From: a bacterium
GTDB lineage: Bacteria; SZUA-182; DTGQ01; JBLIRR01
Reading direction: 5' to 3'
Assembly: GCA_049472395.1 (NCBI GenBank)
Contig: JBLIRR010000037.1
Location: forward strand, 20-64,019
DNA length: 64,000 bases
Shown here: piece after piece, positions 1,299 to 64,000 of the stretch
How the letters are laid out: each line of letters starts with the position of its first letter
How positions within the stretch are numbered: the first letter of the stretch is position 1
Notes under the pieces: generated by a model
What the model was told of the DNA's origin: nothing
The model's input: the letters and a program-made list of their open reading frames with translations, nothing else
Database searches by the model: none
Position numbers and translations under genes: made by a program

Positions 1299-2231
1299 AT
1301 GAAAAAGATAAATAGTATTGCTTGCATTTTTGTAATGATGGGAATGTTACTTGGTGTGACAAGCGTGAGAGCGGAGGTAGGAATAAGTGGTTTTGCCGAC
1401 ATGACATTTGTATTGTCGGATGGTGCAGCTGAGAATGAGAGTCAGATTGAAAATAAATTTAGCACCATTGCTGAACTTAATGTCATTACAAAAATAGATA
1501 ATCAATTAAGCGCTCGTTTAGATTTGGATTTAAACACAGGTGGTCAAGGCGATTCCGGTCAGTTGGAGCAAGCCTATTTTATTTGGACGTCAAGTAAAGA
1601 TATCCAGTTTAAAGGTGGTGTATTTAACAACCATTTAGGCTGGGAAGCGGAAGATGCGCCGAGCATGTATCAAATTACCCATGGCCAATTATACGATATT
1701 TGGAATATTCAAACCAGCCTCAGGGGTAATAATGTCACAGGTATAGCTATATCAGGATATGTTGACAAGGCAAGGCTAATGGGGGCTTTTTTAAATGATT
1801 TGCAGGATACGAATGAGGAGAATTCAATTGAGTTTGTGGTAAATATATACCCGAATCAATTCCTAGACATTGAAGCGGGTGTAGTAACGCAGGAAACTGG
1901 TGCTGAGACAATCATTGATGGCAGCGTAACTTATAAAAAGGGACAGATCACGGCGGGTGTCGAATTAATGCAGTGCAGTAAGGTAATTGACTTCGCGCAA
2001 AGCGCAACGCTTAATTATGAATTCAACAAAGATATGAATGGGACTGTGCGCTTTGATTCAGTTAATTATGAAGATGAACAAATAGAGGAAACAACATCAT
2101 TGACGTTCGCAATAGGCTACAGGTTCCATAAGAATTTGTCCGTTAATGGTGAAATAAGAATAAATAATGATGATAACAACGCTGATAATGACGGAAATAT
2201 AATTCGTGCTGAAGTAGTCGCAACGTTTTAA
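1299..2231 (+). CDS. Outer-membrane beta-barrel (porin-like) protein
   Basis: N-terminal signal peptide (MKKINSIACIFVMMGMLLGVTSVRA). Alternating amphipathic beta-strand pattern, Asn/Asp/Gly-rich loops, and a C-terminal ...VVATF ending in Phe as in OMPs. GGAG 10 nt upstream of the ATG. Confidence 0.6.
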   Translation: MKKINSIACIFVMMGMLLGVTSVRAEVGISGFADMTFVLSDGAAENESQIENKFSTIAELNVITKIDNQLSARLDLDLNTGGQGDSGQLEQAYFIWTSSKDIQFKGGVFNNHLGWEAEDAPSMYQITHGQLYDIWNIQTSLRGNNVTGIAISGYVDKARLMGAFLNDLQDTNEENSIEFVVNIYPNQFLDIEAGVVTQETGAETIIDGSVTYKKGQITAGVELMQCSKVIDFAQSATLNYEFNKDMNGTVRFDSVNYEDEQIEETTSLTFAIGYRFHKNLSVNGEIRINNDDNNADNDGNIIRAEVVATF

Positions 2232-2251
2232 ATATGAATATTAATTTATTT

Positions 2252-2545
2252 TCAATCTTTATCTTCTGACGGACTAATTTCGGATATCACATCCCGTAAT
2301 TGAGCACGAATTCTTCCAGCGGATACCGCCATGACTATAGAGAGGATCGTGCCTATTTCATCCTTTGTAATGGTAATCTTTTTTTCCTTGGCAACGCCAA
2401 GGAAGTGGCGCATTCAAACCTTGCAACCAAAAGCCATTGCAGTAGCCATTTGAATCAAAAGTGTTGTCTTTTGATCGAAACATTTATTATGACCTATTGA
2501 TTTGGAAAATTCTGTAAAAAGTTTATCCTGTTCTTCTGGTAGCAT
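2252..2545 (-). CDS. Carboxymuconolactone-decarboxylase (CMD)/AhpD-family protein, candidate selenoprotein with in-frame UGA (Sec) at 2414..2416
   Basis: ORF with a strong RBS (AAAGGAG 7 nt upstream of the ATG at 2545). Translation is MLPEEQDKLFTEFSKSIGHNKCFDQKTTLLIQMATAMAFGCKV[TGA]MRHFLGVAKEKKITITKDEIGTILSIVMAVSAGRIRAQLRDVISEISPSEDKD. The TGA sits exactly where CMD/AhpD proteins carry the second Cys of the CxxC...H redox motif, which here reads CKVUxxH. It is missed by the ORF track because of the internal TGA. Confidence 0.55.
2386..2402 (-). promoter_or_regulatory. SECIS-like stem-loop 12 nt downstream of the in-frame UGA
   Basis: On the mRNA strand the sequence is UGA-AUGCGCCACUUC-CCUUGGC-GUU-GCCAAGG. 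This is a perfect 7-bp stem with a G/U-containing apical loop at the spacing expected for a bacterial SECIS. Confidence 0.4.
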
Positions 2546-2655
2546 ATATATCTCCTTTTATTCCCATTATTTCTCCTATTGGAGCATGAGCCGAACCAAT
2601 AGCTCCTGTTGCTCCATTAACCAAAACCATTGGGATATCCGAAAGGAATTTCTTT

Positions 2656-3924
2656 TCAGTTGTCATGAGATTCAAATGAATCAGCTTCGGTCAAGTAGGT
2701 AATTCTCTCCAGCAAGGGTGGATGTGAATAATTAAACCAGACATTCAAGCGATGGGGGGTGAGATTGGACAGATTATCCTTAGCCATTTTCTTAAGGGCC
2801 AGCGTCAAAGGCTCTGCATTCTTCATTAATGTGAAGGCATACATGTCAGCCTCCCATTCAAATTTGCGCGAAATTGCCATCATCAAAGGAGAGAGAAAAT
2901 AACCTATGGGTCCCCATAACACTCCCAATAAGAAAAGCCCCACATAAGGGGAAAGAGCTGAAAACCCGAAACTAAAATACATCAGATCCCATGCTATTAA
3001 TTTAGATGCCACATAAAAAAACAGCAAAGAGATAATACTAAAGAGAGCAAGATGCTTTTTGATATGATTTTTTTTAAGGTGCCCTATTTCATGAGCCAGA
3101 ACACCGAGGATTTCATCCTCGCTATGGGACTGGAGCAAAGAGTCGAATAACACAATCCTTTTTGCTTTACCAAGCCCTGATAAATACGCATTAGTATGCC
3201 GGCTCCTTTTTGAGGCATCCATCTGATAGATACCCCGAATCGTCAGTCCTTCCCTGTGAGCAAGTTGCTCTATCCTCCTCTTTAAGTCTGATTCCTCAAG
3301 GGGACTGAATTTATTAAATAGTGGCGCAATAATCGTTGGATACAGAACAGTCATAAGCAATTGAAACCCCAAAACAACCGCCCATGTCCAAATCCACCAA
3401 AATTTACCTGCATAGTGGAGCAACAGCAAGAGTGCAGAAAGGAGAAGACCTCCAAGAATAATTATCACAAGTATAGACTTTACCACATCAGATAACCATA
3501 TTTTAAAGGTTTTGGTATTAAAGCCATACCGCTCTTCAAGAACAAAGCTGTGATAAAGATCAAAGGGCATGTCTACAAGGGCCATCACAAATGATGGGCC
3601 GGAAAAGAAGAGAAGGCCGCCTGCTAAATAATTGAAATGACCCACTTTCTGAGCGAACCAGGGGAGTATCCCTGAAAGAATAATAAAAAGAAAAAAAATT
3701 TTCCCACTACTCGTCTGAAAGAACGAAAAATGGATCTTATCAAGAGTGTATTTTCTGATTTTTTGCAATTCATCCGCATCAATCATTCCCTTAAACGCAT
3801 CAGGGACCTCTTTCCCGAATTTTCTTAAATAGTTCGCATTCAGTTTATCTATTGTGACGTCAAATAAAAAGCTGGCAATATAAAGAGCGCAATAAGCGAG
3901 CAACAGTCCATTTAGAGTTATCAT
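2656..3924 (-). CDS. M48 family zinc metalloprotease (Ste24/HtpX-like, CAAX-protease-type topology)
   Basis: HEIGH (HExxH) motif in LAHEIGHLKKNH. Multi-TM N-terminal half and 422 aa length are typical of Ste24-like M48A peptidases. Confidence 0.8.
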   Translation of the reverse strand: MITLNGLLLAYCALYIASFLFDVTIDKLNANYLRKFGKEVPDAFKGMIDADELQKIRKYTLDKIHFSFFQTSSGKIFFLFIILSGILPWFAQKVGHFNYLAGGLLFFSGPSFVMALVDMPFDLYHSFVLEERYGFNTKTFKIWLSDVVKSILVIIILGGLLLSALLLLLHYAGKFWWIWTWAVVLGFQLLMTVLYPTIIAPLFNKFSPLEESDLKRRIEQLAHREGLTIRGIYQMDASKRSRHTNAYLSGLGKAKRIVLFDSLLQSHSEDEILGVLAHEIGHLKKNHIKKHLALFSIISLLFFYVASKLIAWDLMYFSFGFSALSPYVGLFLLGVLWGPIGYFLSPLMMAISRKFEWEADMYAFTLMKNAEPLTLALKKMAKDNLSNLTPHRLNVWFNYSHPPLLERITYLTEADSFESHDN

Positions 3925-21350: not shown

Positions 21351-21590
21351 ATGGATATGAACCATTTTAAGCTAATATTAAGATTATTTTTTCCCCTTAT
21401 ATTCATTTGTTTAGTTTTCCCTATAAGGGCGTATGCGTATCTTGACCTTGGAAGTGCCAGCTATCTCTTGCAATTATTCCTGGCCAGTTTATTTGCGGGA
21501 TTGTTTCTCCTGAAAATGTACTGGAGAAAAATTGTGTCTTTTATTAGAAATCGACTTTATAACAAGAGAAATGGACAAATTGAAAAATAA
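21351..21590 (+). CDS. Small membrane protein
   Basis: RBS AGGGGAG. Two hydrophobic helices (LILRLFFPLIFICLVFPI and LLQLFLASLFAGLFLL). Confidence 0.4.
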   Translation: MDMNHFKLILRLFFPLIFICLVFPIRAYAYLDLGSASYLLQLFLASLFAGLFLLKMYWRKIVSFIRNRLYNKRNGQIEK

Positions 21591-40458: not shown

Positions 40459-40974
40459 TCATTTTTCATCCTCCGATAATAGGTTCAGTGTGGTTTGGAT
40501 TTGAGTGAGTGTGGAAAGATTATAGCCTTTTTTGGTGATGACAATCTCATTGTGTGGTCCAGTGATAAGTGTGGTTGGCATTTCTTTGACGTTAAATTTT
40601 TCCATAACTGTTCTTTTTCTATCGAGCAGAATTGGATAACTTACATAAATAGAAGTGCTTAATAACTCATGCAGCGTGTCGGTATTTTCCGGATCAATCA
40701 CAATGGATACCAGGGTTATATCTTTCTCTTTCAATTCAGCATTGATTTTTTCAAGTGCATTTAAATATTGTTTACAGACCTTACACCAGCTTACCCAAAA
40801 CACAATTACGACTCTTTTTCCTCTTTGTTGATTAAGGTAAAACCGCTGGTGATTAGTATCTTCCAGATAAAAATCAGGAGCATGTCCTTGTTCACTCTGA
40901 TGGTTTATGCCGTGGTCTCGGCTACAATTTAAAAATAACATGATACACACAATTATGAGTGCCCTATTTCTCAT
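40459..40974 (-). CDS. TlpA/ResA-like periplasmic thiol:disulfide oxidoreductase (thioredoxin fold, lipoprotein)
   Basis: WCKVCK (CxxC) in VIVFWVSWCKVCKQYL. Lipobox LFLNCS. Confidence 0.75.
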   Translation of the reverse strand: MRNRALIIVCIMLFLNCSRDHGINHQSEQGHAPDFYLEDTNHQRFYLNQQRGKRVVIVFWVSWCKVCKQYLNALEKINAELKEKDITLVSIVIDPENTDTLHELLSTSIYVSYPILLDRKRTVMEKFNVKEMPTTLITGPHNEIVITKKGYNLSTLTQIQTTLNLLSEDEK

Positions 40975-44730: not shown

Positions 44731-45258
44731 TTATTTGAGCCGCAACGGAATGCCAACCTCCATTTTATATACCTCATCAGCTTCTCTGGCTACGAGCTGA
44801 TTCATAAATCCACTTATATCCCTGAACTGCCGGGCAAGTTGATTATCCGGAACAATCCCTGATCCAGTGTCATTCGAGATAATGGCCACAATGGGATCAA
44901 TCTGCTTAATTGTGCGGAGCAATTCCTGGATGGTGTGCATGATTTTCTCTTCCGGCTTTTCCGATGCTTCGTGCATAAGAATGAGATTTGATAAATAGAG
45001 GGTTAAACAATCAATAATAACTATTTGGGTTGACTTATCAAGTTCGAGCAATCTGTTATCTATTTTTATTGGTTCTTCGACAGTCGTCCAATGAGAAGGT
45101 CTGTCCTCCTGATGTTTCCTTACACGATCTTGCATCTCGCTATCGAGGATTTGAGCTGTTGCTAAATACACTACTTTTTCATACTTCTCTGCTAATTTTA
45201 TACAATAGGAGGTCTTGCCACTTCGACATCCTCCCACTATAAAGATAAGTCTTGACAA
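44731..45258 (-). CDS. cobU: Adenosylcobinamide kinase / adenosylcobinamide-phosphate guanylyltransferase
   Basis: P-loop IFIVGGCRSGKTSY, about 175 aa. Confidence 0.85.
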   Translation of the reverse strand: MSRLIFIVGGCRSGKTSYCIKLAEKYEKVVYLATAQILDSEMQDRVRKHQEDRPSHWTTVEEPIKIDNRLLELDKSTQIVIIDCLTLYLSNLILMHEASEKPEEKIMHTIQELLRTIKQIDPIVAIISNDTGSGIVPDNQLARQFRDISGFMNQLVAREADEVYKMEVGIPLRLK

Positions 45259-45271
45259 GTTTTCTCCTCCC

Positions 45272-46027
45272 TTAGTTTTTAAATCTCTGCCCTGCTACTA
45301 TAAAAAGCAAGCTTATAACTTCCATTACTTCATTGCTGGCACCTAACGTATCACCGGTTATTCCACCTAATTTATATTTTAGATATTTAATCACACATAC
45401 ACACAGTGCTATGATGAGTAGGATTAATAGAGCACCCCAAATTCTAAACAGACCTATAGAAAGGACAATAGGGATTAAGCTGGCCTTCATTAAATGGTTC
45501 CGATTAACATAATCGGCAAAGATTTTTCCCAGTTTCCCCGTATCTCGTGCATAGGGGCTTAGAGCAGTGATAAATACCATTGCCCATCGTCCAAGTACTG
45601 GCATACAAAGTAGTGCTTTATTTTTTATAGCGGGTATCATACAAGACAAACAGGCCCACTTTAATCCCAGAAGGCATATTAGGCTTATCACACCCATGCT
45701 TCCTAAATGGCTGTCTTTCATTATTGTTAATATGTGTTCTTTGTCAGATCCTGCATAGAAAGCATCAAAACAATCGCCGAGACCATCTAAATGCAACGCT
45801 CCTGTGAGATAAATGAGAGAAATGATCAATATTATGTCCACAACAGCTCTAGGGAATAAGTATAAGAGGATAAAATTTTCAAGTACTAGCATAGCGCCGA
45901 TCAAAAGCCCTATGAGTGGGAAATGAATCATTGAATCAGCCAGATCTTCCTCTCGTAGCTGCGTCTTCCCGGATTCGATTTTAATTATAGTTAAAAATTG
46001 CAGTGCTATTATAATCTTATCTATCAT
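45272..46027 (-). CDS. cobS: Adenosylcobinamide-GDP ribazoletransferase (cobalamin synthase)
   Basis: About 250-aa polytopic membrane protein with the CobS pattern ...YLTGALHLDGLGDCFDA... Sits between cobQ and cobU. Confidence 0.8.
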   Translation of the reverse strand: MIDKIIIALQFLTIIKIESGKTQLREEDLADSMIHFPLIGLLIGAMLVLENFILLYLFPRAVVDIILIISLIYLTGALHLDGLGDCFDAFYAGSDKEHILTIMKDSHLGSMGVISLICLLGLKWACLSCMIPAIKNKALLCMPVLGRWAMVFITALSPYARDTGKLGKIFADYVNRNHLMKASLIPIVLSIGLFRIWGALLILLIIALCVCVIKYLKYKLGGITGDTLGASNEVMEVISLLFIVAGQRFKN

Positions 46028-46048
46028 GGTTGTTCATTTATTGTAAGC

Positions 46049-47578
46049 TTAGTTAAGGAGTTTGTAAATTGCATCCATGTCGAGATTTTCTCTAACATGA
46101 ATAGCAAGCTTATCATATTCCCTTTGATTTTCCATTAAATTGACCTGAGGATTGTGCGGCAAGTTTCTAAGACCTCTTTTCTTGCGAAGAAGGTTGATAA
46201 AGTCCCTTCTGAATAGATGATTAGCGAACAGATCATGGATATACGTCCCCCAAATTTGCCCATCTTCTGATAGTGCTCCATCCTCTAATTCCACAGACTT
46301 GTTTGAACGTTGTATTATTGTGCAAAATGCCTTAGTCTTATCTTCCCGATTTGTCTCACCCACATGAATTTCATAACCTTTAATTTCCCTGACATTATCC
46401 GAAGGAAAAGAACAAAGAGCAGTAATCTGGGATGTTATCTTTTGTTGAGCAAGTGTAGTATTTACATTGAGCAATCCGAGACCGGCGATAACTTTTTGCC
46501 TGCTTTCCATACTATATGGATCCTCAATTTTTTTCCCCAGCATCTGATATCCACCGCATACTCCTAAAACCATGCCCCCATCCTGTGCATACCGACATAT
46601 CGCTTCTGAATATCCTGCTTTTTTTAAATAATTAAGATCATCAATAGTATTTTTACTTCCAGGGATGATGATAGCATCGGCAAAACCAATGGACTCTCCT
46701 TGTCCAATATATCGTAAATGGACATCAGACTCATTTTCAAGTGGATCAAAATCAGTAAAGTTTGATATATGGGGAAGATACATGACAGCTATTATAATTT
46801 TAGTGATATTACAAACAGTGTTGTTCATTTTCTCTTGAGGCACGCTGTCTTCTTCCTTGATATATATGTCCTTGAAATAGGGGATAATGCCAAGCACTGG
46901 CAGGTTTGTCTTCTTTTCAATAAATTCTATGCCTGATGTTAAAAGATCTTTATCACCTCGAAATTTGTTTATAATGATACCCTTTACTGATTTTCGTTCC
47001 TTTTGTGTCAATAATGCCAATGTGCCTACAATCCAGGCAAATGCGCCTCCCTTATCAATATCGACCACTAATAATACGGGCGCTTCGGCAAGATGAGCGA
47101 TCTTCATATTAACAATATCATTTTTCCGTAAGTTGATTTCAGCAGGACTGCCAGCTCCCTCAATTACAATAAGATCGAATTGGGATGATAACCGGTTGTA
47201 ACTATCTTTTATTGCCTTGAAGGCATCTTTTTGATAATTATAGTATTGCTTAACTGACATATTTGTATGAAGTTTCCCCTGCACAATGACCTGGGCCCCA
47301 ATATCAGTATTAGGCTTTAAAAGTATAGGATTCATATCCACCGTAGGCTCAATATTAGCTGCTTCTGCCTGAGTAGCTTGTGCCCGTCCAATTTCGCCCC
47401 CGTCAATTGTAATATAAGAGTTCAAGGCCATATTCTGTGATTTAAAGGGAGCAACGTTATAACCATCTTGATAGAATATGCGGCATAGGGCGGCAACTAT
47501 CACACTCTTGCCCACATGAGAGCCGGTGCCCTGCACCATGAGAGCCTTAGCTTTTCTCTGAGACATGAGCTTCTCCAA
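46049..47578 (-). CDS. cobQ: Cobyric acid synthase
   Basis: N-terminal ATPase GTGSHVGKS and C-terminal glutamine amidotransferase domain with GVCGGYQMLG. 509 aa. Confidence 0.85.
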   Translation of the reverse strand: MEKLMSQRKAKALMVQGTGSHVGKSVIVAALCRIFYQDGYNVAPFKSQNMALNSYITIDGGEIGRAQATQAEAANIEPTVDMNPILLKPNTDIGAQVIVQGKLHTNMSVKQYYNYQKDAFKAIKDSYNRLSSQFDLIVIEGAGSPAEINLRKNDIVNMKIAHLAEAPVLLVVDIDKGGAFAWIVGTLALLTQKERKSVKGIIINKFRGDKDLLTSGIEFIEKKTNLPVLGIIPYFKDIYIKEEDSVPQEKMNNTVCNITKIIIAVMYLPHISNFTDFDPLENESDVHLRYIGQGESIGFADAIIIPGSKNTIDDLNYLKKAGYSEAICRYAQDGGMVLGVCGGYQMLGKKIEDPYSMESRQKVIAGLGLLNVNTTLAQQKITSQITALCSFPSDNVREIKGYEIHVGETNREDKTKAFCTIIQRSNKSVELEDGALSEDGQIWGTYIHDLFANHLFRRDFINLLRKKRGLRNLPHNPQVNLMENQREYDKLAIHVRENLDMDAIYKLLN

Positions 47579-48602
47579 AGGTAGCCATTTCTGTATATAG
47601 TTTTAGCGCAGCTTCGATAAGGTTTATCTCCAATGCCGCGCCAGTACCCTCTCCTAATCGAAGATCAAGGTCAAGAAAAGGCTTTTGGCCTATTTTGTCT
47701 AATAGTACCTGATGCCCGGCTTCCTGGGATCTATGGGATGCTATAATATAATCCTTGATTTTTGGTTCGATCTCTGTGGCGATCACTGCGCCAGCGGTCG
47801 CTATAAAGCCATCGGTAACAACAGGAACTCTTCTCTGGGCAGCGGCAATGACAACGCCAGCTAAGCCTCCGATCTCAAATCCCCCTACTTTTGCCAGAAC
47901 ATCAAGCGGATCGTTCGGGACGGGCTTATTGATTTCGATAGCCTTTTTAATCGTTTGTATCTTATTATCAAGCATCTGATCAGTGATCCCGGTCCCTTTC
48001 CCTGTAACTTTCTCAACTGGTTCTCCTGTTATTACAGCCGTTATGGCGCTGCTGGCTGTTGTATTGCCAATGCCCATATCTCCAATACCGGTGATATCAA
48101 TTCCATTATCATATTCATTGCTGAAGATCTCAATACCAGCTTCAATTGATTTTATAGCCTCATCACGAGTCATAGCAGAACCTTTAACCATATTTTGAGT
48201 TCCGTAACCTATTTTCTTGATAATGAGGCCTGCCCTTGGCTTTAGATCTGATGCTACTCCCAGATCTGCGATAACAACCCGCGCACCAATATGACGTGCA
48301 AGAACATTTATGCCTGCCCCGCCATGGAGAAAATTATACACCATCTGAGCTGTAACTTCAGATGGATAAGCACTTATTCCCTCCTGCGTAACTCCGTGAT
48401 CACCAGCAAACGTAAATAGTACTTTTTTCTTTAGACGAGGCCATTCTTGACCTGTAATTATCACCAGTCTTTTTGCTATCTCTTCAAGTCTGCCTAAACT
48501 TCCCTGCGGTTTTGTAAGACTATCCAATCTTCTTTGTGCTATCTGTTCTAGTTGTGTATCACAGGGAATGATCTTTGATATGAGCCTGCTAATATCCTTC
48601 AT
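47547..48602 (-). CDS. cobT: Nicotinate-nucleotide--dimethylbenzimidazole phosphoribosyltransferase
   Basis: ...GIGDMGIGNTT... motif and Gly-rich CobT fold, about 350 aa. Overlaps cobQ by 32 nt. Confidence 0.85.
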   Translation of the reverse strand: MKDISRLISKIIPCDTQLEQIAQRRLDSLTKPQGSLGRLEEIAKRLVIITGQEWPRLKKKVLFTFAGDHGVTQEGISAYPSEVTAQMVYNFLHGGAGINVLARHIGARVVIADLGVASDLKPRAGLIIKKIGYGTQNMVKGSAMTRDEAIKSIEAGIEIFSNEYDNGIDITGIGDMGIGNTTASSAITAVITGEPVEKVTGKGTGITDQMLDNKIQTIKKAIEINKPVPNDPLDVLAKVGGFEIGGLAGVVIAAAQRRVPVVTDGFIATAGAVIATEIEPKIKDYIIASHRSQEAGHQVLLDKIGQKPFLDLDLRLGEGTGAALEINLIEAALKLYTEMATFGEAHVSEKS

Positions 48603-48629: not shown

Positions 48630-50537
48630 TTAGAATGTCAACTTTATCCCGCCATAGAATGATCTTCCCGCAGTGCTATATCCTGGTATTTCCTCATAGT
48701 CTTCATTCAGAAGATTATTTATTTTCCCATGGATCTGAAATAGTGTATTTATATCATACATGGCAGCTAAGTCAAGCCTCCTATAAGCATCGATTTTCTC
48801 TTCATTAGCCACATCGTCCCATCGGTCTCCTACATAATTTAAAGTACAGTAGAGATTGAGTCTTTGCACTGCACTGTAGTCTATAGTGAGGCTCGTTTTA
48901 TTTTTGGGTCGACGGAGCAGCTCTTTTTCTTTTTCCTTATCTTCAGTTTTTGTAAAGGTATGGTTTGCCTTGAGGATTAAGTCTTTGAAAAGTTCAAATG
49001 CTGCTTCAATTTCCCATCCTTGAGTCAAAGCTCGTGAAACATTTTGAGGGGTCCACCTGAATGGATTTTCAGGTCTAGGATCAGGGGCCCATTCAATGAG
49101 GTGTTCAAATTGATTGTGAAAATAACAGAGGGATAGAGAGATACGCTCATTATTCAATTTTTGCTGAATGCCTATATCATAACTTTCAGATTCTTCAGCT
49201 TTTAATTCAGGATTGCCAGAATCGGGCCAATAGAGAGAATTTAATGTCGGGGCCTTAAAGGCTGTGCCCCAATTTACCTTTACTTTCGTCCCCATGTCTT
49301 TAAAAAGATAAGCGATGGATGCTTTATAAGTGGATTCAGATCCGAATGTACTATAGTCGTCTATCCTCCATCCAGCGGATATAAACAGGGATTCATCGAG
49401 AAGATTGAGTTGATTTTGTAGAAATAAAGCCTTATTCACAACGGATTCATCATATCCTGAGTCAATATATTCAGATGTCTCCATACTATATTCAAATCCT
49501 TCATATTCACCCATCTGCTCATTATATTCTGCCCCAAGAACCAGAGTATTTATCTTATTAAAAAGGGAGAGATTATGCTGCCATTGAATAGTGCGATTCT
49601 GGATTTCTATCTCGCTATTATTCCATATGTTTATATCATCCTTGTTATCGTATTTGTTATTGACTAATGAGAAGATGAGGTTATGGTCCCATTGGTCGAG
49701 GATGACGTGATGAAGATTGAGCGAGGAAATAAGGGAGTTGGTTTCCTGGATATAAGAAGGATTATCTTGGCCTATCTCATCAAAGTCCTTGTCGGCCTCA
49801 TTATATCTAAGAGATAGATCAATAGTGTAAGAGCTTGGGAAATCAATGCCAAATCTACTCGCTACAGATTTATTCTTATACCCATCGTCCTCATCCCCAT
49901 CTTTTGCTGCGGAGAATCCTTTAGAATCCTGGTTCGACAAAGAGAGGGAATAATTAATAATATCAGATCCACCGGAGAGAGCATAATTCACACTATACGT
50001 CTCAAAGGAGCCACCTACCAATGAAAGAACATGCTCTGGCTTCCCTCTTCCTTTTTTTGTGATAATATTAACAACGCCACACATTGCATCAGACCCATAA
50101 AGCGTGCTATATGCTCCTCGTACTATCTCAATTCTTTCGATGTTAGCAGTAGAAAGATCAGCAAAATCAAAGTTACCTGTGGTCGGGCTATTCACACGCA
50201 CCCCATCGATTAGGACAAGCGTATGTCTCGAATTACCACCTCTTGTCAAAATATCGGTTAATCCCCCCGGGCCACCGGACTGGATAACATCAATGCCCGC
50301 AACATTTCTTAATACCTCGCCCACTGTTATGGCTTTTTGATTTTCGATTTCTTGCTCGATAATTATCGTAGCAGAGGCAGAGGTCTGCTCCAGTGGTTCT
50401 TCTATCTTAGAGCCTGTAATAATTATTTCTCCAAGATCATAGGTCTTCCCGGCAAAAGCCTCTCTATGAATGAGAATAATTAATAACAGTGCTACAAAAA
50501 AGATCATTGCAAAACGTAAATAAAGTCTTTTAAACAT
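48630..50537 (-). CDS. btuB: TonB-dependent outer-membrane receptor, BtuB-type (cobalamin/corrinoid uptake)
   Basis: Signal peptide. TonB-box-like DLGEIIITGS. Plug domain, 22-strand barrel ending ...GGIKLTF. First gene of the cob operon behind a B12 riboswitch. Confidence 0.8.
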   Translation of the reverse strand: MFKRLYLRFAMIFFVALLLIILIHREAFAGKTYDLGEIIITGSKIEEPLEQTSASATIIIEQEIENQKAITVGEVLRNVAGIDVIQSGGPGGLTDILTRGGNSRHTLVLIDGVRVNSPTTGNFDFADLSTANIERIEIVRGAYSTLYGSDAMCGVVNIITKKGRGKPEHVLSLVGGSFETYSVNYALSGGSDIINYSLSLSNQDSKGFSAAKDGDEDDGYKNKSVASRFGIDFPSSYTIDLSLRYNEADKDFDEIGQDNPSYIQETNSLISSLNLHHVILDQWDHNLIFSLVNNKYDNKDDINIWNNSEIEIQNRTIQWQHNLSLFNKINTLVLGAEYNEQMGEYEGFEYSMETSEYIDSGYDESVVNKALFLQNQLNLLDESLFISAGWRIDDYSTFGSESTYKASIAYLFKDMGTKVKVNWGTAFKAPTLNSLYWPDSGNPELKAEESESYDIGIQQKLNNERISLSLCYFHNQFEHLIEWAPDPRPENPFRWTPQNVSRALTQGWEIEAAFELFKDLILKANHTFTKTEDKEKEKELLRRPKNKTSLTIDYSAVQRLNLYCTLNYVGDRWDDVANEEKIDAYRRLDLAAMYDINTLFQIHGKINNLLNEDYEEIPGYSTAGRSFYGGIKLTF

Positions 50538-50645: not shown

Positions 50646-50724
50646 TCCACCAAAACCTTCTATAGATAATATTTATACCTCGTAAATAGTATCCATTATT
50701 ATCACAGCAGGTTTTCTGACTTTC

Positions 50725-50885
50725 GGATCATTCTACTTGCCTCGCCTTCCCATCTTAATGCTTTATACATTAAAGAAAGTGGCAATATGAGGTTTTCGTC
50801 CCCGATTACAGCGGCGGGTCCGTTCCCGATTTACACGAGATTCCCTATTAAGCTCACATTGAGCACAGTAATAATAATCGAGTTA
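50725..50885 (-). promoter_or_regulatory. Cobalamin (adenosylcobalamin/B12) riboswitch
   Basis: The minus strand contains AAUAGGGAAUCUCGUGUAAAUCGGGAACGGACCCGCCGCUGUAAUCGGGGACGAAAACC. This carries the conserved AAUAGGGAA, a GGACCCGCC-(B12 box GCCGCUG, one substitution from GCCACUG)-UAA block and a GGGGA-GAAA segment. Confidence 0.8.
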
Positions 50886-59455: not shown

Positions 59456-62400
59456 TTATATACAGCCTTCCGTATCTCCTTTAATTTCATTACTAATTTT
59501 ATTTATAATATTTTTAATGTACTCTTTAAGATCTTCGAGTGTAAATTCACCAGTTTTCCAGGCATAACCTTCGCCTACTCTTACGTGCCCCTCTGCTCCT
59601 CCTCCAGCTGATAGACTACCTTGAATTCCCCAAGTTAATTTATCTTTACCAATAGATGTTATGAGATCTGCACCCCCCTTTCCTAAAATACCACCTGACC
59701 CTCCATGAGTCATATATAACCCCTTTAGCACTTCCCAATCACTAGTAAACATAATCCCTAATTCTCCGCCAACACCTCCACTCATTCCCATATGAGATCC
59801 AGTTTCACCAGCTACATAATATCCATGTTCAAGTTTGGGCCCTTTATCCCACGTTATATTTCCCCATTTGCCGCTTGAAACACTAAAACCCTGTCCTGCA
59901 CCCGCAGAACCTTGACCACCACCAAAAATAAGAAGTAACCCCCACGGGTCAATCAAATTCACCGGATTATTTCCAACATATACATAAAGGTTCATATCAC
60001 CGCCCGCAAATCCAAGTGGGTCTTGGGTCAGAAATCGCCCTATCTCTGGATCATAATATCGTGCTCTATAGTAATATAAGCCACTCTCAGAGTCAAATTC
60101 TCGGCCTGTATACGTATAGGGATTATTTAAAATGCCAGCCTGATTCACAATATTCCCAAAGGAATCATAGGTATATTCCTGTTGAATATTCCCGAGAGAG
60201 TCTGCAATTTGCGTAATACTTCCTAACCCATCGGAAAGATAATAATACGTAGTGCCTCCTATACGCACCTGTAGTGGCTCATCGATACCAGGGCCATGGG
60301 TATAATAGTTACCCATAGTGAAGGTAGAATCCAGCGTGTACAAAACATCCTCACTATCATAAATATAAGAGGTTTTAACACCATTAACCTCTTTACAAAT
60401 TCTTCTGCCCAGACCATCATAATAATAGAAAATTGTGCTGCTTGGTGTCGTAATCCCTGTAAGTTGATTTTCGGTGTTATAGGTATATGTGGTAACCTCA
60501 TCGTTAGACTTATTTATCTTTTGCGTAAGACAGCCATTGATATAGTGATAAGTAAAAAGGCCGTCATCTAAGAGTCTATTACCTACATCATAACTCCACT
60601 CAGATGAGCTGGAAGAAGAGAGACGATTGCCAATAGGATCATAGGTAAATGTTTCCGTGGAAATCTGAGGATGAGTTGCTTGGAGTAATTGATAGAGTTG
60701 GTCATACGCATAGTCATGATCACCATGTAAGTCAGAGAGTTTAGTACGATTTTGTAAGGCGTCATATAAATAGCTAAAATTGGATATTGTCGTTATATCT
60801 AAGTTATGATTTAAAGCGGTTAGATTTCCATTGAGATTATAGCTATAAAGGGAGGTTAAGTCATTCGGTAATGTTTTTGCTGTACGTTGATTTTTTTCAT
60901 CATATGCAAATGAATAAACCTGATTCGTTGATGTTGTGAGTGTGGATAAACTATTTCTAGTATCATAGGAATAATTGATTGCGTCGCCTAAGGGATCTGT
61001 CATACTTATCCTGTTTCCATTTGCATCATACGTGTAAGAAATCGTTGTATCCGGTTGGTAAACGGTAGCGCCGGTATATGCAGTAATTAATCGATTATTA
61101 TTGTCATAATCAAAGGAGAGATGAGAATATGGATTTGTAATGGTGGTGATATTACCAATTAAGTCGTGATTATAGGTAGTTATTTCTCCATTAGAGAAAG
61201 TTTTTCTCATGAGACGATCAAGACTGTCATACTCGTAAATTATTTCATCTCCATTATAAAGCGTTTTTTTGATTAGGTTTCCAACATTATCATAAGAATA
61301 GAGCTCTTGTTCATTTGAGGGATTAGTTATAGAGAGATTTCGATCTATACTGTCATAGCTAAAATAAGTAGTATATCCTTTAGCATTGGTTAATGAGATG
61401 AGATTACCCTTCTCATCATATCCGACTGCGGTTTCTCCATTCTGGGGATCTATGATTTTAACCTGTTGGTTATTTAAATCATACTCATAATACATGATAT
61501 TTCCTAAGGAATCGGTCATGGAAGAAAGATTGCCCATGGCATCATATGTATAGGTAGTCTGGTTGCCAAGCGGATCTGTTTTTGTAATAAGTCGATTTAG
61601 AGTATCATAAGTATAATAGGTGATTGCGTCTTTTTCGTCGGTTTTGGCTAAAATATTGCCATTGTGATCATACGTATAATTACTTTCATGCCCCAAAGGA
61701 TCAATCGTTTTAATGAGCCGGTTTTTATCGTCATAATGATACTCAGTGCTATTTCCATTCGCATCGGTCATTGATCTACGATTTCCTACAGCGTCATATG
61801 TATACCTGATATGCCCTCCCACCGGATCAGTGATATCCCTTAGATTATTCATAGTATCATAGTCATATAATGTAGTATTTCCCAATGCATCGGTAAACGA
61901 AATCATATTTCCCGCAGCATCGTACGTATAGGTACTTATATTACCCAAAGCGCCTGTATGTTTAATCATATTCCCATAGGAGTCATATTCATACGTTGTG
62001 GTCGCGCCATTTGCATTGGTGATAGTATGGATGAGCCCATCACTATAATAGGTCATGGTTGTTGTATTACCCAAGGGATCTGTAATTGAAATAAGATTTC
62101 CATTTGCATCATAGCCAAACGTCCTGACCCTGCCTAATGTATCAGTTATAGTCTTTACTTTGTTGTATGTGCTCTCATACGTATAGGTGTTGGTATTGCC
62201 CAGTGCATCCGTTAATGAGATAAGATTACCCATGTCATCATATTCTTTTTGTATTGTAGCGCCATTTGGATTATGAATAGTGGCAATGTTACCTGATTCA
62301 ATATCACGTTCATAGGTAGTTATGTTGCCCAACGCATCGATTTTGGAGGTTAAACGACCATATTTATCCGTTTTCATTACGGTAACATTGCCTTCAGGAT

Positions 62401-64000
62401 CTGTATGGATATCATCTTGAGGAGGCAGCCCGGGGCTTGGATTATCATAGGTTCCTTCGCCTTCAATAAGGTCGTTGATAAGCCCATATCTATTGGAAGG
62501 AGAATAGTTATTGGTGCTTTCATCCGGACCCTCAACTCTCTCTATCATTCCATGAGTATCGTAATAATAATGCGTAGATCGAGAAAGGGGATCAGTTTTG
62601 GATGTCAACAAATGCAATGCATCATAGGTAAAACTCGTCGTTGATCCATCCGGCGCAATGATACTCGTTAAATTATTATCACTATCATGAATAAACTGGG
62701 TGGTTCGTCCCGCAGGGTCGGTTATAGAGGAAAGAGTATTATCGTCAAAGGTAAATGTTGTACTAAGGTCAACAGGATCTGTGATTCTTGTAAGCCTATC
62801 GCTTGCATCATAGAAATAATTTGTGATTTGTCCATTAGTATCTTCCTTGGACGTCTCTAATCCTTGAGCATTAAAACGATACGTAGTGCCATCCTTCATG
62901 ATACGCGTGTATGAACCATCTTCATTACGAGAAAGGGTGGAATAATCTCCTTCCGGTGATATAAGGCCTGTATTTGTATTTGCATTTGTGCTCTGCTTTA
63001 CTACTCGTATACGCTTATTGTCCTTATCAGCAATATAAATATTTCCGGCTTCATCCACCGCCACTCTCACGGGACTAGCTAATTCGGCAAGTATGGCAGG
63101 ACCGCCATCGCCGGAATATCCATAATTCCCATTTCCCGCTATCGTTGAGATTATACCGCTCGGATCTATCCGCCGGATACAGTTATTTTCTCGATCCGCA
63201 ATATAAATATTCCCCACATTATCTACTGCTATTCCATAAGGCTTGCGAAACGAAGCTTCTACTGCAGGGCCGCCATCGCCGGAATATCCATACTTATCAG
63301 GATTGCCGGCTATCGTTGTTATGATACCAGATGGATCTATACGCCGGATACAATTATTACAGGTATCAGCAATATAAATATTTCCGGCATTATCCACTGC
63401 TACATCTTTGGGAGCAGCTAACTCTGCATATACAGCAGAGCCATCATCACCTGAATAGCCCGGACCATTGCCAGCAATGGTTGATATAATACCACTTGGA
63501 TCTATACGCCGGATACAGTGATTAAGGGTATCAGCAATATAAATATTTCCGGCATTATCTACTGCTATTCCATAGGGGCGGTCTAACAAAGCTTGTGTTG
63601 CAAGGCCACCATCACCTGAATAGCCTGAATGGCCCCATAAATCAAAAATACCCGCTATGATGGTGATAGTGCCGCCTGGACTTATACGCCGGATACACTC
63701 ATTGAGGGTATCAGCAATATAAATATTTCCGGCATTATCTACTGCAACGTCCGATGGTTGCCATAAATCAACTTCGAGTCCAACGGCCTCTTCCCCAAAA
63801 CAGGGTCTCACAAAAGAACCCGCTATTGTGGTGATACCACCGCTTGATTCTATTCGCCGGATACGATCATCACGGCCACCATCAGCAATATAAATATTCC
63901 CATGCGCATCTGCGGCAACTCCAGTGATAGTATTTAATGCAACTTCCGAAGCAACGCCATCATCTCGCCCTTCTCCTCCACCAGCCAGGGTTTCTATCAT
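59456..64000 (-). CDS. Giant RHS/YD-repeat polymorphic toxin with N-terminal NHL-repeat beta-propeller and Gly-rich C-terminal tip (3' end of gene; N-terminus beyond window)
   Basis: Six NHL repeats (GNIYIAD...NxCIRRIDPSGIISTIAGNG). Dozens of YD repeats (YxYDxxGNL). The RHS core terminus YYYRARYYDPEIGRFLTQDPLGFAGGDMNLYVYVGNNPVNLIDPWGL is followed by about 175 aa of Gly-rich sequence. Confidence 0.85.
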   Translation of the reverse strand: MIETLAGGGEGRDDGVASEVALNTITGVAADAHGNIYIADGGRDDRIRRIESSGGITTIAGSFVRPCFGEEAVGLEVDLWQPSDVAVDNAGNIYIADTLNECIRRISPGGTITIIAGIFDLWGHSGYSGDGGLATQALLDRPYGIAVDNAGNIYIADTLNHCIRRIDPSGIISTIAGNGPGYSGDDGSAVYAELAAPKDVAVDNAGNIYIADTCNNCIRRIDPSGIITTIAGNPDKYGYSGDGGPAVEASFRKPYGIAVDNVGNIYIADRENNCIRRIDPSGIISTIAGNGNYGYSGDGGPAILAELASPVRVAVDEAGNIYIADKDNKRIRVVKQSTNANTNTGLISPEGDYSTLSRNEDGSYTRIMKDGTTYRFNAQGLETSKEDTNGQITNYFYDASDRLTRITDPVDLSTTFTFDDNTLSSITDPAGRTTQFIHDSDNNLTSIIAPDGSTTSFTYDALHLLTSKTDPLSRSTHYYYDTHGMIERVEGPDESTNNYSPSNRYGLINDLIEGEGTYDNPSPGLPPQDDIHTDPEGNVTVMKTDKYGRLTSKIDALGNITTYERDIESGNIATIHNPNGATIQKEYDDMGNLISLTDALGNTNTYTYESTYNKVKTITDTLGRVRTFGYDANGNLISITDPLGNTTTMTYYSDGLIHTITNANGATTTYEYDSYGNMIKHTGALGNISTYTYDAAGNMISFTDALGNTTLYDYDTMNNLRDITDPVGGHIRYTYDAVGNRRSMTDANGNSTEYHYDDKNRLIKTIDPLGHESNYTYDHNGNILAKTDEKDAITYYTYDTLNRLITKTDPLGNQTTYTYDAMGNLSSMTDSLGNIMYYEYDLNNQQVKIIDPQNGETAVGYDEKGNLISLTNAKGYTTYFSYDSIDRNLSITNPSNEQELYSYDNVGNLIKKTLYNGDEIIYEYDSLDRLMRKTFSNGEITTYNHDLIGNITTITNPYSHLSFDYDNNNRLITAYTGATVYQPDTTISYTYDANGNRISMTDPLGDAINYSYDTRNSLSTLTTSTNQVYSFAYDEKNQRTAKTLPNDLTSLYSYNLNGNLTALNHNLDITTISNFSYLYDALQNRTKLSDLHGDHDYAYDQLYQLLQATHPQISTETFTYDPIGNRLSSSSSSEWSYDVGNRLLDDGLFTYHYINGCLTQKINKSNDEVTTYTYNTENQLTGITTPSSTIFYYYDGLGRRICKEVNGVKTSYIYDSEDVLYTLDSTFTMGNYYTHGPGIDEPLQVRIGGTTYYYLSDGLGSITQIADSLGNIQQEYTYDSFGNIVNQAGILNNPYTYTGREFDSESGLYYYRARYYDPEIGRFLTQDPLGFAGGDMNLYVYVGNNPVNLIDPWGLLLIFGGGQGSAGAGQGFSVSSGKWGNITWDKGPKLEHGYYVAGETGSHMGMSGGVGGELGIMFTSDWEVLKGLYMTHGGSGGILGKGGADLITSIGKDKLTWGIQGSLSAGGGAEGHVRVGEGYAWKTGEFTLEDLKEYIKNIINKISNEIKGDTEGCI

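Follow-up and report, generated by a model that had tools for sequence, protein, structure and literature searches.

A predicted CMD/AhpD-fold selenoprotein gene that public annotation divides at its in-frame UGA

Can a short minus-strand stretch of bacterial DNA, for which the public record holds a 53-residue hypothetical protein, encode one complete protein with selenocysteine (Sec) at an internal UGA codon? The question is raised by positions 2252..2545 of a 64-kb stretch (hereafter the window, that is, the whole DNA that was analysed). A preliminary description, made from the letters alone, had proposed a 97-residue protein that is complete only upon readthrough of a TGA, with an excellent ribosome-binding site in front of it. 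Read on the minus strand from 2545 to 2252, the frame gives MLPEEQDKLFTEFSKSIGHNKCFDQKTTLLIQMATAMAFGCKV*MRHFLGVAKEKKITITKDEIGTILSIVMAVSAGRIRAQLRDVISEISPSEDKD, its sole internal stop being the TGA at 2414..2416. Translation starts at the ATG at 2543..2545, with the N-terminal MLPE.. that is common to most homologues, and ends at a terminal TGA stop at 2252..2254. The Shine-Dalgarno sequence AAGGAG (2552..2557, minus strand), directly visible in the letters, lies 6 nt 5' of the ATG, and both proposals agree with the DNA: 43 + 1 + 53 residues lie in one frame. The complete predicted selenoprotein gene has 97 codons (43 + Sec + 53) and the motif C41-K-V-U44. Translation and homologue alignment make the in-frame TGA the predicted Sec codon, U44. 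Cys41, which opens the CxxU motif, is encoded by the TGC codon at 2423..2425 and is invariant in alignment A2, while the CAC codon at 2405..2407 encodes His47, three residues past Sec and, by alignment, a candidate active-site His.

The gene had been described as invisible to standard ORF calling, and public callers indeed give half-length pieces only. A mechanical ORF listing of the locus yields a 43-aa and a 53-aa piece; a second pipeline gives the same two pieces, and in the NCBI record of the contig (64,115 bp) the C-terminal 53-aa piece alone is annotated, as a hypothetical protein. An assembler error does not account for the TGA, since the region 2200..2700, the TGA included, is 100% identical in a separate assembly of run DRR851354, a run that may be the source data of the metagenome-assembled genome (MAG) itself.

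We then asked to which family the undivided product belongs. With U read as C, it scores a modest 27.6 bits against the Pfam model PF02627 (CMD), for which the gathering score is 23. A search of the PDB with the family profile returned 3bey as best match (E 3.9e-9), and the CxxC of this solved CMD protein, like that of 1vke, aligns with the CxxU of the window protein. For structure prediction with AlphaFold, a natural Cys-form homologue that is 47% identical (P0003) stood in for the window protein. In the resulting model (pLDDT 84), five helices are predicted, with the CxxC at the N-terminus of helix 3, and the best PDB matches are small CMD-family proteins, namely TM1620 (1vke/1p8c, TM 0.70), 3bey, 3d7i and RclX (7y4r). 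The Pfam threshold that is passed and the confident five-helix bundle of the homologue thus support a CMD/AhpD fold of the window protein, as had been claimed from the letters. TM1620, O27018 (3bey), 3d7i and RclX would resemble it in their all-helical fold (TM 0.59-0.70), in length and in the position of the CxxC motif, but they carry Cys where the window protein has Sec, and most of them have no assigned function. The preliminary description had further placed the TGA at the second Cys of a CxxC..H motif. The position of the codon was correct, as it aligns with the Cys of 3bey and 1vke; the His, however, follows the Sec at +3 (CxxUxxH) rather than at +4 as in 3bey and 1vke.

Two outcomes had been named in advance as refuting ones: homologues that end at the TGA, and an alignment in which the TGA misses the conserved Cys. 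A protein search retrieved full-length homologues of about 50% identity, most with 'W' and two with 'C' (P0003 and P0015) at the TGA column. In the DNA of these homologues, the codon behind the database 'W' is TGA, to which metagenome gene callers had applied code 4. When genomes were scanned, one for each species, 80 loci were obtained, and 82 motif-bearing loci, that of the window included, were compared. The codon at the Sec column is TGA in 79 of the 82 and TGC in three (L025, L061 and L072, all Geobacter or Geobacteraceae). The phyla in which loci were found comprise Desulfobacterota, Acidobacteriota, Gemmatimonadota, Chloroflexota, Bacteroidota, Nitrospinota, Zixibacteria, WOR-3, Fidelibacterota and others. 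In a sister MAG (GCA_049472375.1), the gene (locus L003) encodes a protein of 78% identity and is split by the same TGA. Together with the window protein, it forms a divergent clade with CKVU/CQLU versus the CYPU of most relatives and with a 2-residue insertion.

The division at the Sec codon is common in protein databases. When 1.84 billion representatives were profiled, we obtained 492 matches and examined the best 150 at the Sec column: 70 consist of the N-terminal half only and 43 of the C-terminal half only, that is, 113 are half-proteins broken at the Sec codon. The 37 that span both halves, again among the best 150 of 492, have C (31), W (3), S (2) or G (1) at this column. Homologues hence continue past the codon, and a Cys occupies its column in P0003, P0015, the three TGC loci, 3bey and 1vke. 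By alignment, the in-frame UGA forms a predicted Sec/Cys pair with these homologues.

These comparisons also bear on whether the two annotated pieces might be two independent small genes of 43 and 53 aa, or the TGA a sense codon (code 4 or 25). An ATG directly follows the TGA, which makes the 53-aa ORF formally callable, and some database entries give Trp at the TGA. Yet the two pieces add up to a single CMD domain, unbroken in the Cys-form homologues, the Met after the TGA is an internal residue of the family (CxxCM), and the second ATG is without a ribosome-binding site. As for the genetic code, the stops of the 35 other long ORFs of the window are TAA (22), TGA (8) and TAG (5); since TGA serves as a normal stop in eight of them, the code is standard, and the homologues, too, come from many standard-code phyla. 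We regard two genes or a sense codon as scarcely credible.

In a further approach, we analysed the hairpin downstream of the UGA, which had been claimed as perfect, 7 bp long and compatible with a bacterial SECIS element. The hairpin is real, and its stem is longer than stated: in the window, UUCCUUGGC-GUU-GCCAAGGAA (2384..2404, minus strand) forms a perfect 9-bp stem, of which 7 bp (2386..2402) are the core that is conserved in relatives. The apical G-U-U loop (2393..2395) starts 18 nt after the UGA, while the 9-bp stem begins after 9 nt and the 7-bp core after 11 nt. A wider segment of 61 nt folds with -16 kcal/mol (z -2.3), and 4 of 200 shuffled sequences fold as well. Perfect hairpins of 7 bp or more whose loop begins with G and lies 16-37 nt away follow about 1% of the 2601 TGA triplets of the window, although the hairpin at 2384..2404 is, on the minus strand of the 64 kb, the only perfect one of 9 bp with such a loop at this distance past a TGA. 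By itself, the hairpin carries little weight. A search of Rfam returned no SECIS-type match for it, only a chance match to SAM/SAH (E 8.4). The case for a selenoprotein is therefore built on comparison with relatives rather than on the fold of a single sequence.

Across the TGA loci, the stem reads CYUURGC / GCYARRG, and a G-U-N loop stands at a fixed offset, 18 nt past the UGA. Covariation was counted on alignment A3, which comprises 53 TGA sequences, a subset picked in list order; the structure was derived from these same sequences, and the stem lies inside coding sequence. With these caveats, 86% of the A3 cells are paired, versus 24-54% when the partners are slid by 1-3 columns. At stem pair 22/36, 36 sequences have C-G and 16 have U-A; at pair 25/33, 47 have G-C and six have A-U. 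The covariation score was 0.242 versus 0.165 for shuffles, and none of 500 shuffles reached the observed value. Two compensatory changes illustrate the constraint. In one, Leu CUU becomes Phe UUU together with a change of Lys AAG to AAA; in the other, Gly GGC becomes Ser AGC together with a change of Ala GCC to GCU. Both combine a non-synonymous substitution on the 5' side with a synonymous one on the 3' side of the stem, so that constraint on the protein alone is insufficient to explain them.

A SECIS that accompanies the TGA codon and is missing beside TGC is the classical mark of a selenoprotein family. In the published bSECIS model (PMC13188914), the loop has 3-9 nt with a G in loop position 1 or 2, the stem 4-16 bp, the distance from UGA to loop is 16-37 nt and the MFE is -7.5 kcal/mol or lower. 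All values of the window hairpin lie within these bounds: a GUU loop, a 9-bp stem, 18 nt and, for the segment from the UGA, an MFE of -13.3 to -13.5 kcal/mol. We then applied our own operational version of the test to the loci, with the spacing fixed at 18 nt and a stem count anchored at the triloop. It was passed by 71 of 77 distinct TGA sequences and by none of the three TGC loci, which have ..YLGQVEKE.. instead of ..YLGVAKE.. and no hairpin. Four of the six failures have lost the loop-closing pair and were scored as zero stem by the triloop-anchored count. The hairpin of the sister locus L003 has a compensated stem pair yet also an internal C·A mismatch, and at -7.2 kcal/mol it just misses the -7.5 limit. 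That is, compatibility with a bacterial SECIS was borne out by the published bounds, by covariation in the TGA relatives and by the absence of the hairpin from the TGC forms.

A CMD gene killed by a nonsense mutation of its Cys codon, followed by a fortuitous hairpin, would look similar at first sight. From TGC or TGT to TGA is one base change, NCBI annotates the 53-aa fragment only, and the hairpin frequency of about 1% among TGA triplets given above leaves room for chance. Such a pseudogene is, however, hard to reconcile with a TGA that recurs in 79 of 82 loci from many phyla and with a hairpin that is conserved through compensatory changes in TGA sequences and fails the bSECIS test in all three TGC loci. 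In addition, we estimated selection against L003 with our own Nei-Gojobori-type script. At a dS of about 0.8, codons 1-43 gave an ω of 0.078 and codons 45-88 one of 0.128. Purifying selection acts on both halves of the gene, the part 3' of the TGA included. We consider a pseudogene very improbable.

Decoding of UGA as Sec depends on dedicated machinery, and we searched the window for it. No selA, selB or selD was found among the 36 window ORFs scanned with Pfam, and no convincing second TGA-recoded gene was detected in the window; we counted both results against the selenoprotein reading. The 64-kb window holds no tRNA genes, and no tRNA-Sec was found beside the gene in 13 related loci. Four pairs of ORFs in intergenic gaps that could be joined through a TGA were rejected, their translations being of low complexity or not protein-like, and a motif scan of the window (C..U, U..C and similar) gave, besides the CMD gene, only an unconvincing 28-aa extension at 21511. 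As to the remaining content of the window, a cobalamin riboswitch located elsewhere is the only match at the Rfam gathering threshold. A tentative placement comes from CobT, which the window also encodes: at 63-66% identity, its closest named relatives belong to Candidatus Omnitrophota MAGs.

The lack of Sec machinery and of another selenoprotein gene within the 64 kb, together with the divergence of the window clade from the main family, would suit a relic, in a genome that lost this machinery or never had it and in which the UGA terminates translation or allows low-level near-cognate readthrough (Trp or Cys) free of Sec. But TGA, perfect 9-bp SECIS and downstream frame are all intact, and both halves are strongly purified relative to the sister MAG, which itself keeps the TGA and a compensated stem. 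Loss of the machinery should bring conversion to Cys or decay. We therefore judge a relic improbable, though less so than a pseudogene.

With high confidence, then, we interpret positions 2252..2545 of the minus strand as a single functional gene that encodes a 97-residue selenoprotein of CMD/AhpD fold and that annotation has missed. Its active-site residue encoded by the in-frame UGA is very probably selenocysteine. In the bacterial Sec pathway, the SelB·GTP·Sec-tRNA(Sec) complex binds the SECIS, and Sec is inserted at the UGA. By analogy, with the ribosome at UGA44, the downstream hairpin (7-9 bp stem, apical G-U-N loop) would be bound by SelB·GTP·Sec-tRNA(Sec), and SelB would deliver Sec at codon 44 in competition with release factor 2. 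In AhpD of M. tuberculosis, the second Cys of the CxxC motif, Cys133, is the nucleophile. Sec44 takes the place of this second Cys, which we take to be equivalent to Cys133. Fold and motif accordingly suggest Sec44, within C41-K-V-U44-M-R-H47 at a helix N-terminus, as the putative attacking residue. Cys41, judged by fold, motif and the AhpD precedent, would be the resolving residue and form a selenenylsulfide with Sec44, and His47 may assist. On these grounds the product would be a small thiol/selenol-disulfide oxidoreductase.

How does this protein relate to known selenoproteins? That AhpD-like proteins form an established selenoprotein family had been stated beforehand and is confirmed by the literature. 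Zhang, Fomenko & Gladyshev 2005 (PMC1088965) described an 'AhpD-like protein' and a 'CMD domain-containing protein' from the Sargasso Sea, both with CxxU; Zhang & Gladyshev 2008 (PMC2398784) added 'AhpD-like 1' (COG2128) and 'AhpD-like 2' (pfam02627) with CxxU from the GOS data; a 2026 review (PMC13188914) lists a 'CMD-like protein, PF02627, CxxU', and CMD/AhpD CxxU selenoproteins appear also in a 2022 review and in the BSepDB database. The published CMD-like CxxU family shares with the window protein the CMD domain, Sec as second residue of CxxU, Cys homologues and an in-frame SECIS directly downstream. We likened the two by description (representative MBW1767730.1), and the window protein differs from most relatives in its CKVU instead of CYPU and in the 2-residue insertion. 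The type, a CxxU selenoprotein of CMD/AhpD fold whose SECIS lies in frame, has thus been known since 2005, and the window protein is a new, divergent member.

Among NCBIfam models, the best matches were to the AhpD domains of the MduS, ArsM/AhpD and GSU3128 models, all far under the respective cut-offs. The ArsM/AhpD (NF041537) and MduS (NF045649) fusion selenoproteins are attributed to Haft & Tolstoy 2025 in PMC13188914, the source through which we cite them. Their C-terminal AhpD domain with CxxU aligns alone (profile positions about 238-337), and unfused relatives directly downstream of arsM in 12 loci mirror the ArsM/AhpD fusion; the window gene, however, has neither a methyltransferase domain nor an ars neighbour. 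Membership in either fusion family was rejected at 32-57 bits, the window protein itself scoring 32-37, versus cut-offs of 510 and 380. The GSU3128 family (NF041047), which corresponds to the 'distant AhpD homolog' in Kryukov & Gladyshev 2004, resembles the window protein as a small stand-alone AhpD-related CxxU/CxxC protein. Here, too, membership was rejected: the window protein scored 28.1 bits and five homologues and the sister-MAG protein 27-40, against a cut-off of 110. AhpD-like 1 (COG2128 / TIGR01926) was discarded since TIGR01926 is absent from the NCBIfam matches at E up to 1. Neither the window protein nor the five main-clade homologues nor the sister-MAG protein attains the cut-off of any NCBIfam model, which plausibly explains why the gene has been missed.

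AhpD of M. tuberculosis, which shares the CxxC..His redox motif on a CMD fold, is a protein of about 177 residues in which the fold is duplicated, with AhpC and lipoamide as its partners. At the window locus, by contrast, the sole redoxin of the window (40459..40974) lies 38 kb from the selenoprotein gene.

The gene neighbourhood gave a different lead. In the window, an M48-family (Ste24/HtpX-like) membrane peptidase gene (2656..3924, minus strand; Pfam Peptidase_M48_N and Peptidase_M48) lies on the same strand, 110 nt upstream of the selenoprotein gene. The spacer between the two contains no promoter-like or terminator-like site, and an inverted repeat in the spacer 5' of the gene does not fold significantly (z -1.8). 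The selenoprotein gene may be co-transcribed with the peptidase gene. This neighbourhood is not kept in the sister locus L003, where the neighbours are different.

Among the neighbours at the 82 loci, an arsenite methyltransferase gene (arsM; NF008823, 333 bits versus a cut-off of 263) is the most frequent, present at 14 loci and in 12 of these directly upstream on the same strand. ArsR/SmtB regulators were found at seven of the 82 loci, the ACR3 arsenite efflux transporter (462 bits versus 283) at six, and thioredoxin-type ArsC-like neighbours, assigned by similarity only (130.5 bits versus a cut-off of 174.3), at five. At least one arsenic-resistance neighbour accompanies the gene at 21 of the 82 loci; neither the window gene nor L003 has one. 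Because of the arsM neighbourhoods and the published ArsM/AhpD fusion selenoprotein, analogy suggests that members of the family often take part in the methylation or detoxification of arsenic. It is plausible that the family acts there as a reductant or carrier, and the context of the window gene itself lends this no support. Going further, one might speculate that the stand-alone CxxU CMD family of ~95 residues is the unfused ArsM/AhpD domain, a dedicated selenol partner of arsenite methyltransferase (as reductant of its catalytic disulfide or as As(III) carrier), and that the divergent CKVU clade of the window, which follows an M48 protease gene and is free of ars genes, has been recruited to another client. 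We put this forward as a doubtful but conceivable scenario.

The main value of the finding is a correction of annotation: a 97-residue selenoprotein is currently recorded as a 53-aa hypothetical protein. Most of the family is mis-annotated alike, as half-proteins; among the full-length entries, some show a Trp that is an error of code-4 translation. Since the stand-alone family is without an NCBIfam model, its members will keep being missed, and a curated model would mend many genomes together. The adjacency to arsM provides a testable lead on the role of these uncharacterised small CxxU proteins. Finally, the gene makes it likely that the MAG, which may be related to Omnitrophota, uses selenocysteine.

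In 12 of the 82 loci of the stand-alone CxxU CMD family (the window's gene counted), arsM, encoding arsenite methyltransferase, lies immediately upstream of the CMD gene. arsM neighbours occur at L006, L009, L031, L033-L036, L041, L042, L051, L056, L060, L071 and L076 (for example L071:5077-5959). One or more genes of the ars type (arsM, arsR, acr3 or an arsC-like gene) flank the family in 21 of the 82 loci. This order of arsM followed by CMD resembles the published ArsM/AhpD fusion selenoprotein. In the window, the selenoprotein gene has neither an adjacent arsM nor any other ars-type neighbour.

At two of the loci the upstream arsM-like ORF is broken into two adjoining pieces (L009:4180-5895 and L051:4505-5911). 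Since ArsM itself is a known UxxG selenoprotein, these breaks may each mark a second in-frame TGA. Five loci (L006, L009, L031, L036 and L074) contain a shorter second CMD-like ORF of about 85 amino acids, located 1.7-1.9 kb downstream (for example L031:3204-3462), which bears an NCIPCFEH motif and is rich in Cys at the C-terminus. This ORF matched only the AhpD domains of the fusion selenoproteins MduS and ArsM/AhpD, with scores below their cut-offs.

Counted from Sec, the candidate active-site His of the CxxU CMD family aligns at +3, and position +4 is aromatic (U-M-E-H-Y); in the window's gene the His codon is 2405..2407 on the minus strand. In the solved CMD proteins (3bey and 1vke) the order is reversed (C-I-R-Y-H or C-T-R-R-H). 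The 110-nt spacer before the selenoprotein gene (2546..2655, minus strand) contains an inverted repeat, CTATTGG...CCAATAG, with a nested GGAGC...GCTCC, and pairing is possible up to the region of the ribosome-binding site. The fold of this spacer was not significant (z -1.8), and an Rfam search of it returned no matches.

Elsewhere in the window, the sole thiol peroxidase/redoxin candidate is an AhpC/TSA-redoxin family protein (40459..40974, minus strand) with an ordinary W-C-K-V-C active site, encoded 38 kb from the selenoprotein gene; the likeness of its CKVC to the selenoprotein's CKVU is probably a coincidence. A cobalamin riboswitch (50689..50885, minus strand, 108 bits) upstream of a TonB-dependent receptor gene (48630..50537), which is followed by cobT, cobQ, cobS and cobU (44731..48602), constitutes a B12 salvage and uptake operon. 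The nearest named relatives of its CobT (47547..48602, minus strand) are from Candidatus Omnitrophota MAGs (63-66% identity). One ORF (59456..64000, minus strand) is very large, exceeding 1513 amino acids and continuing beyond the window end; its product looks like a polymorphic-toxin-type protein because it combines NHL/teneurin-type beta-propeller repeats with many RHS repeats.

In public metagenome gene calls, the Sec TGA of the CxxU CMD family is rendered as Trp (database homologues P0002 and P0004-P0014; the codons behind the false residue include L001:215-217 and L002:318-320), apparently as a result of code 4 having been chosen for short contigs. The same calls also run past the true TGA stop, which gives L002 a spurious tail (..WIIWTRPF). 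Full-length entries of this family with the false Trp appear normal despite the wrong residue.
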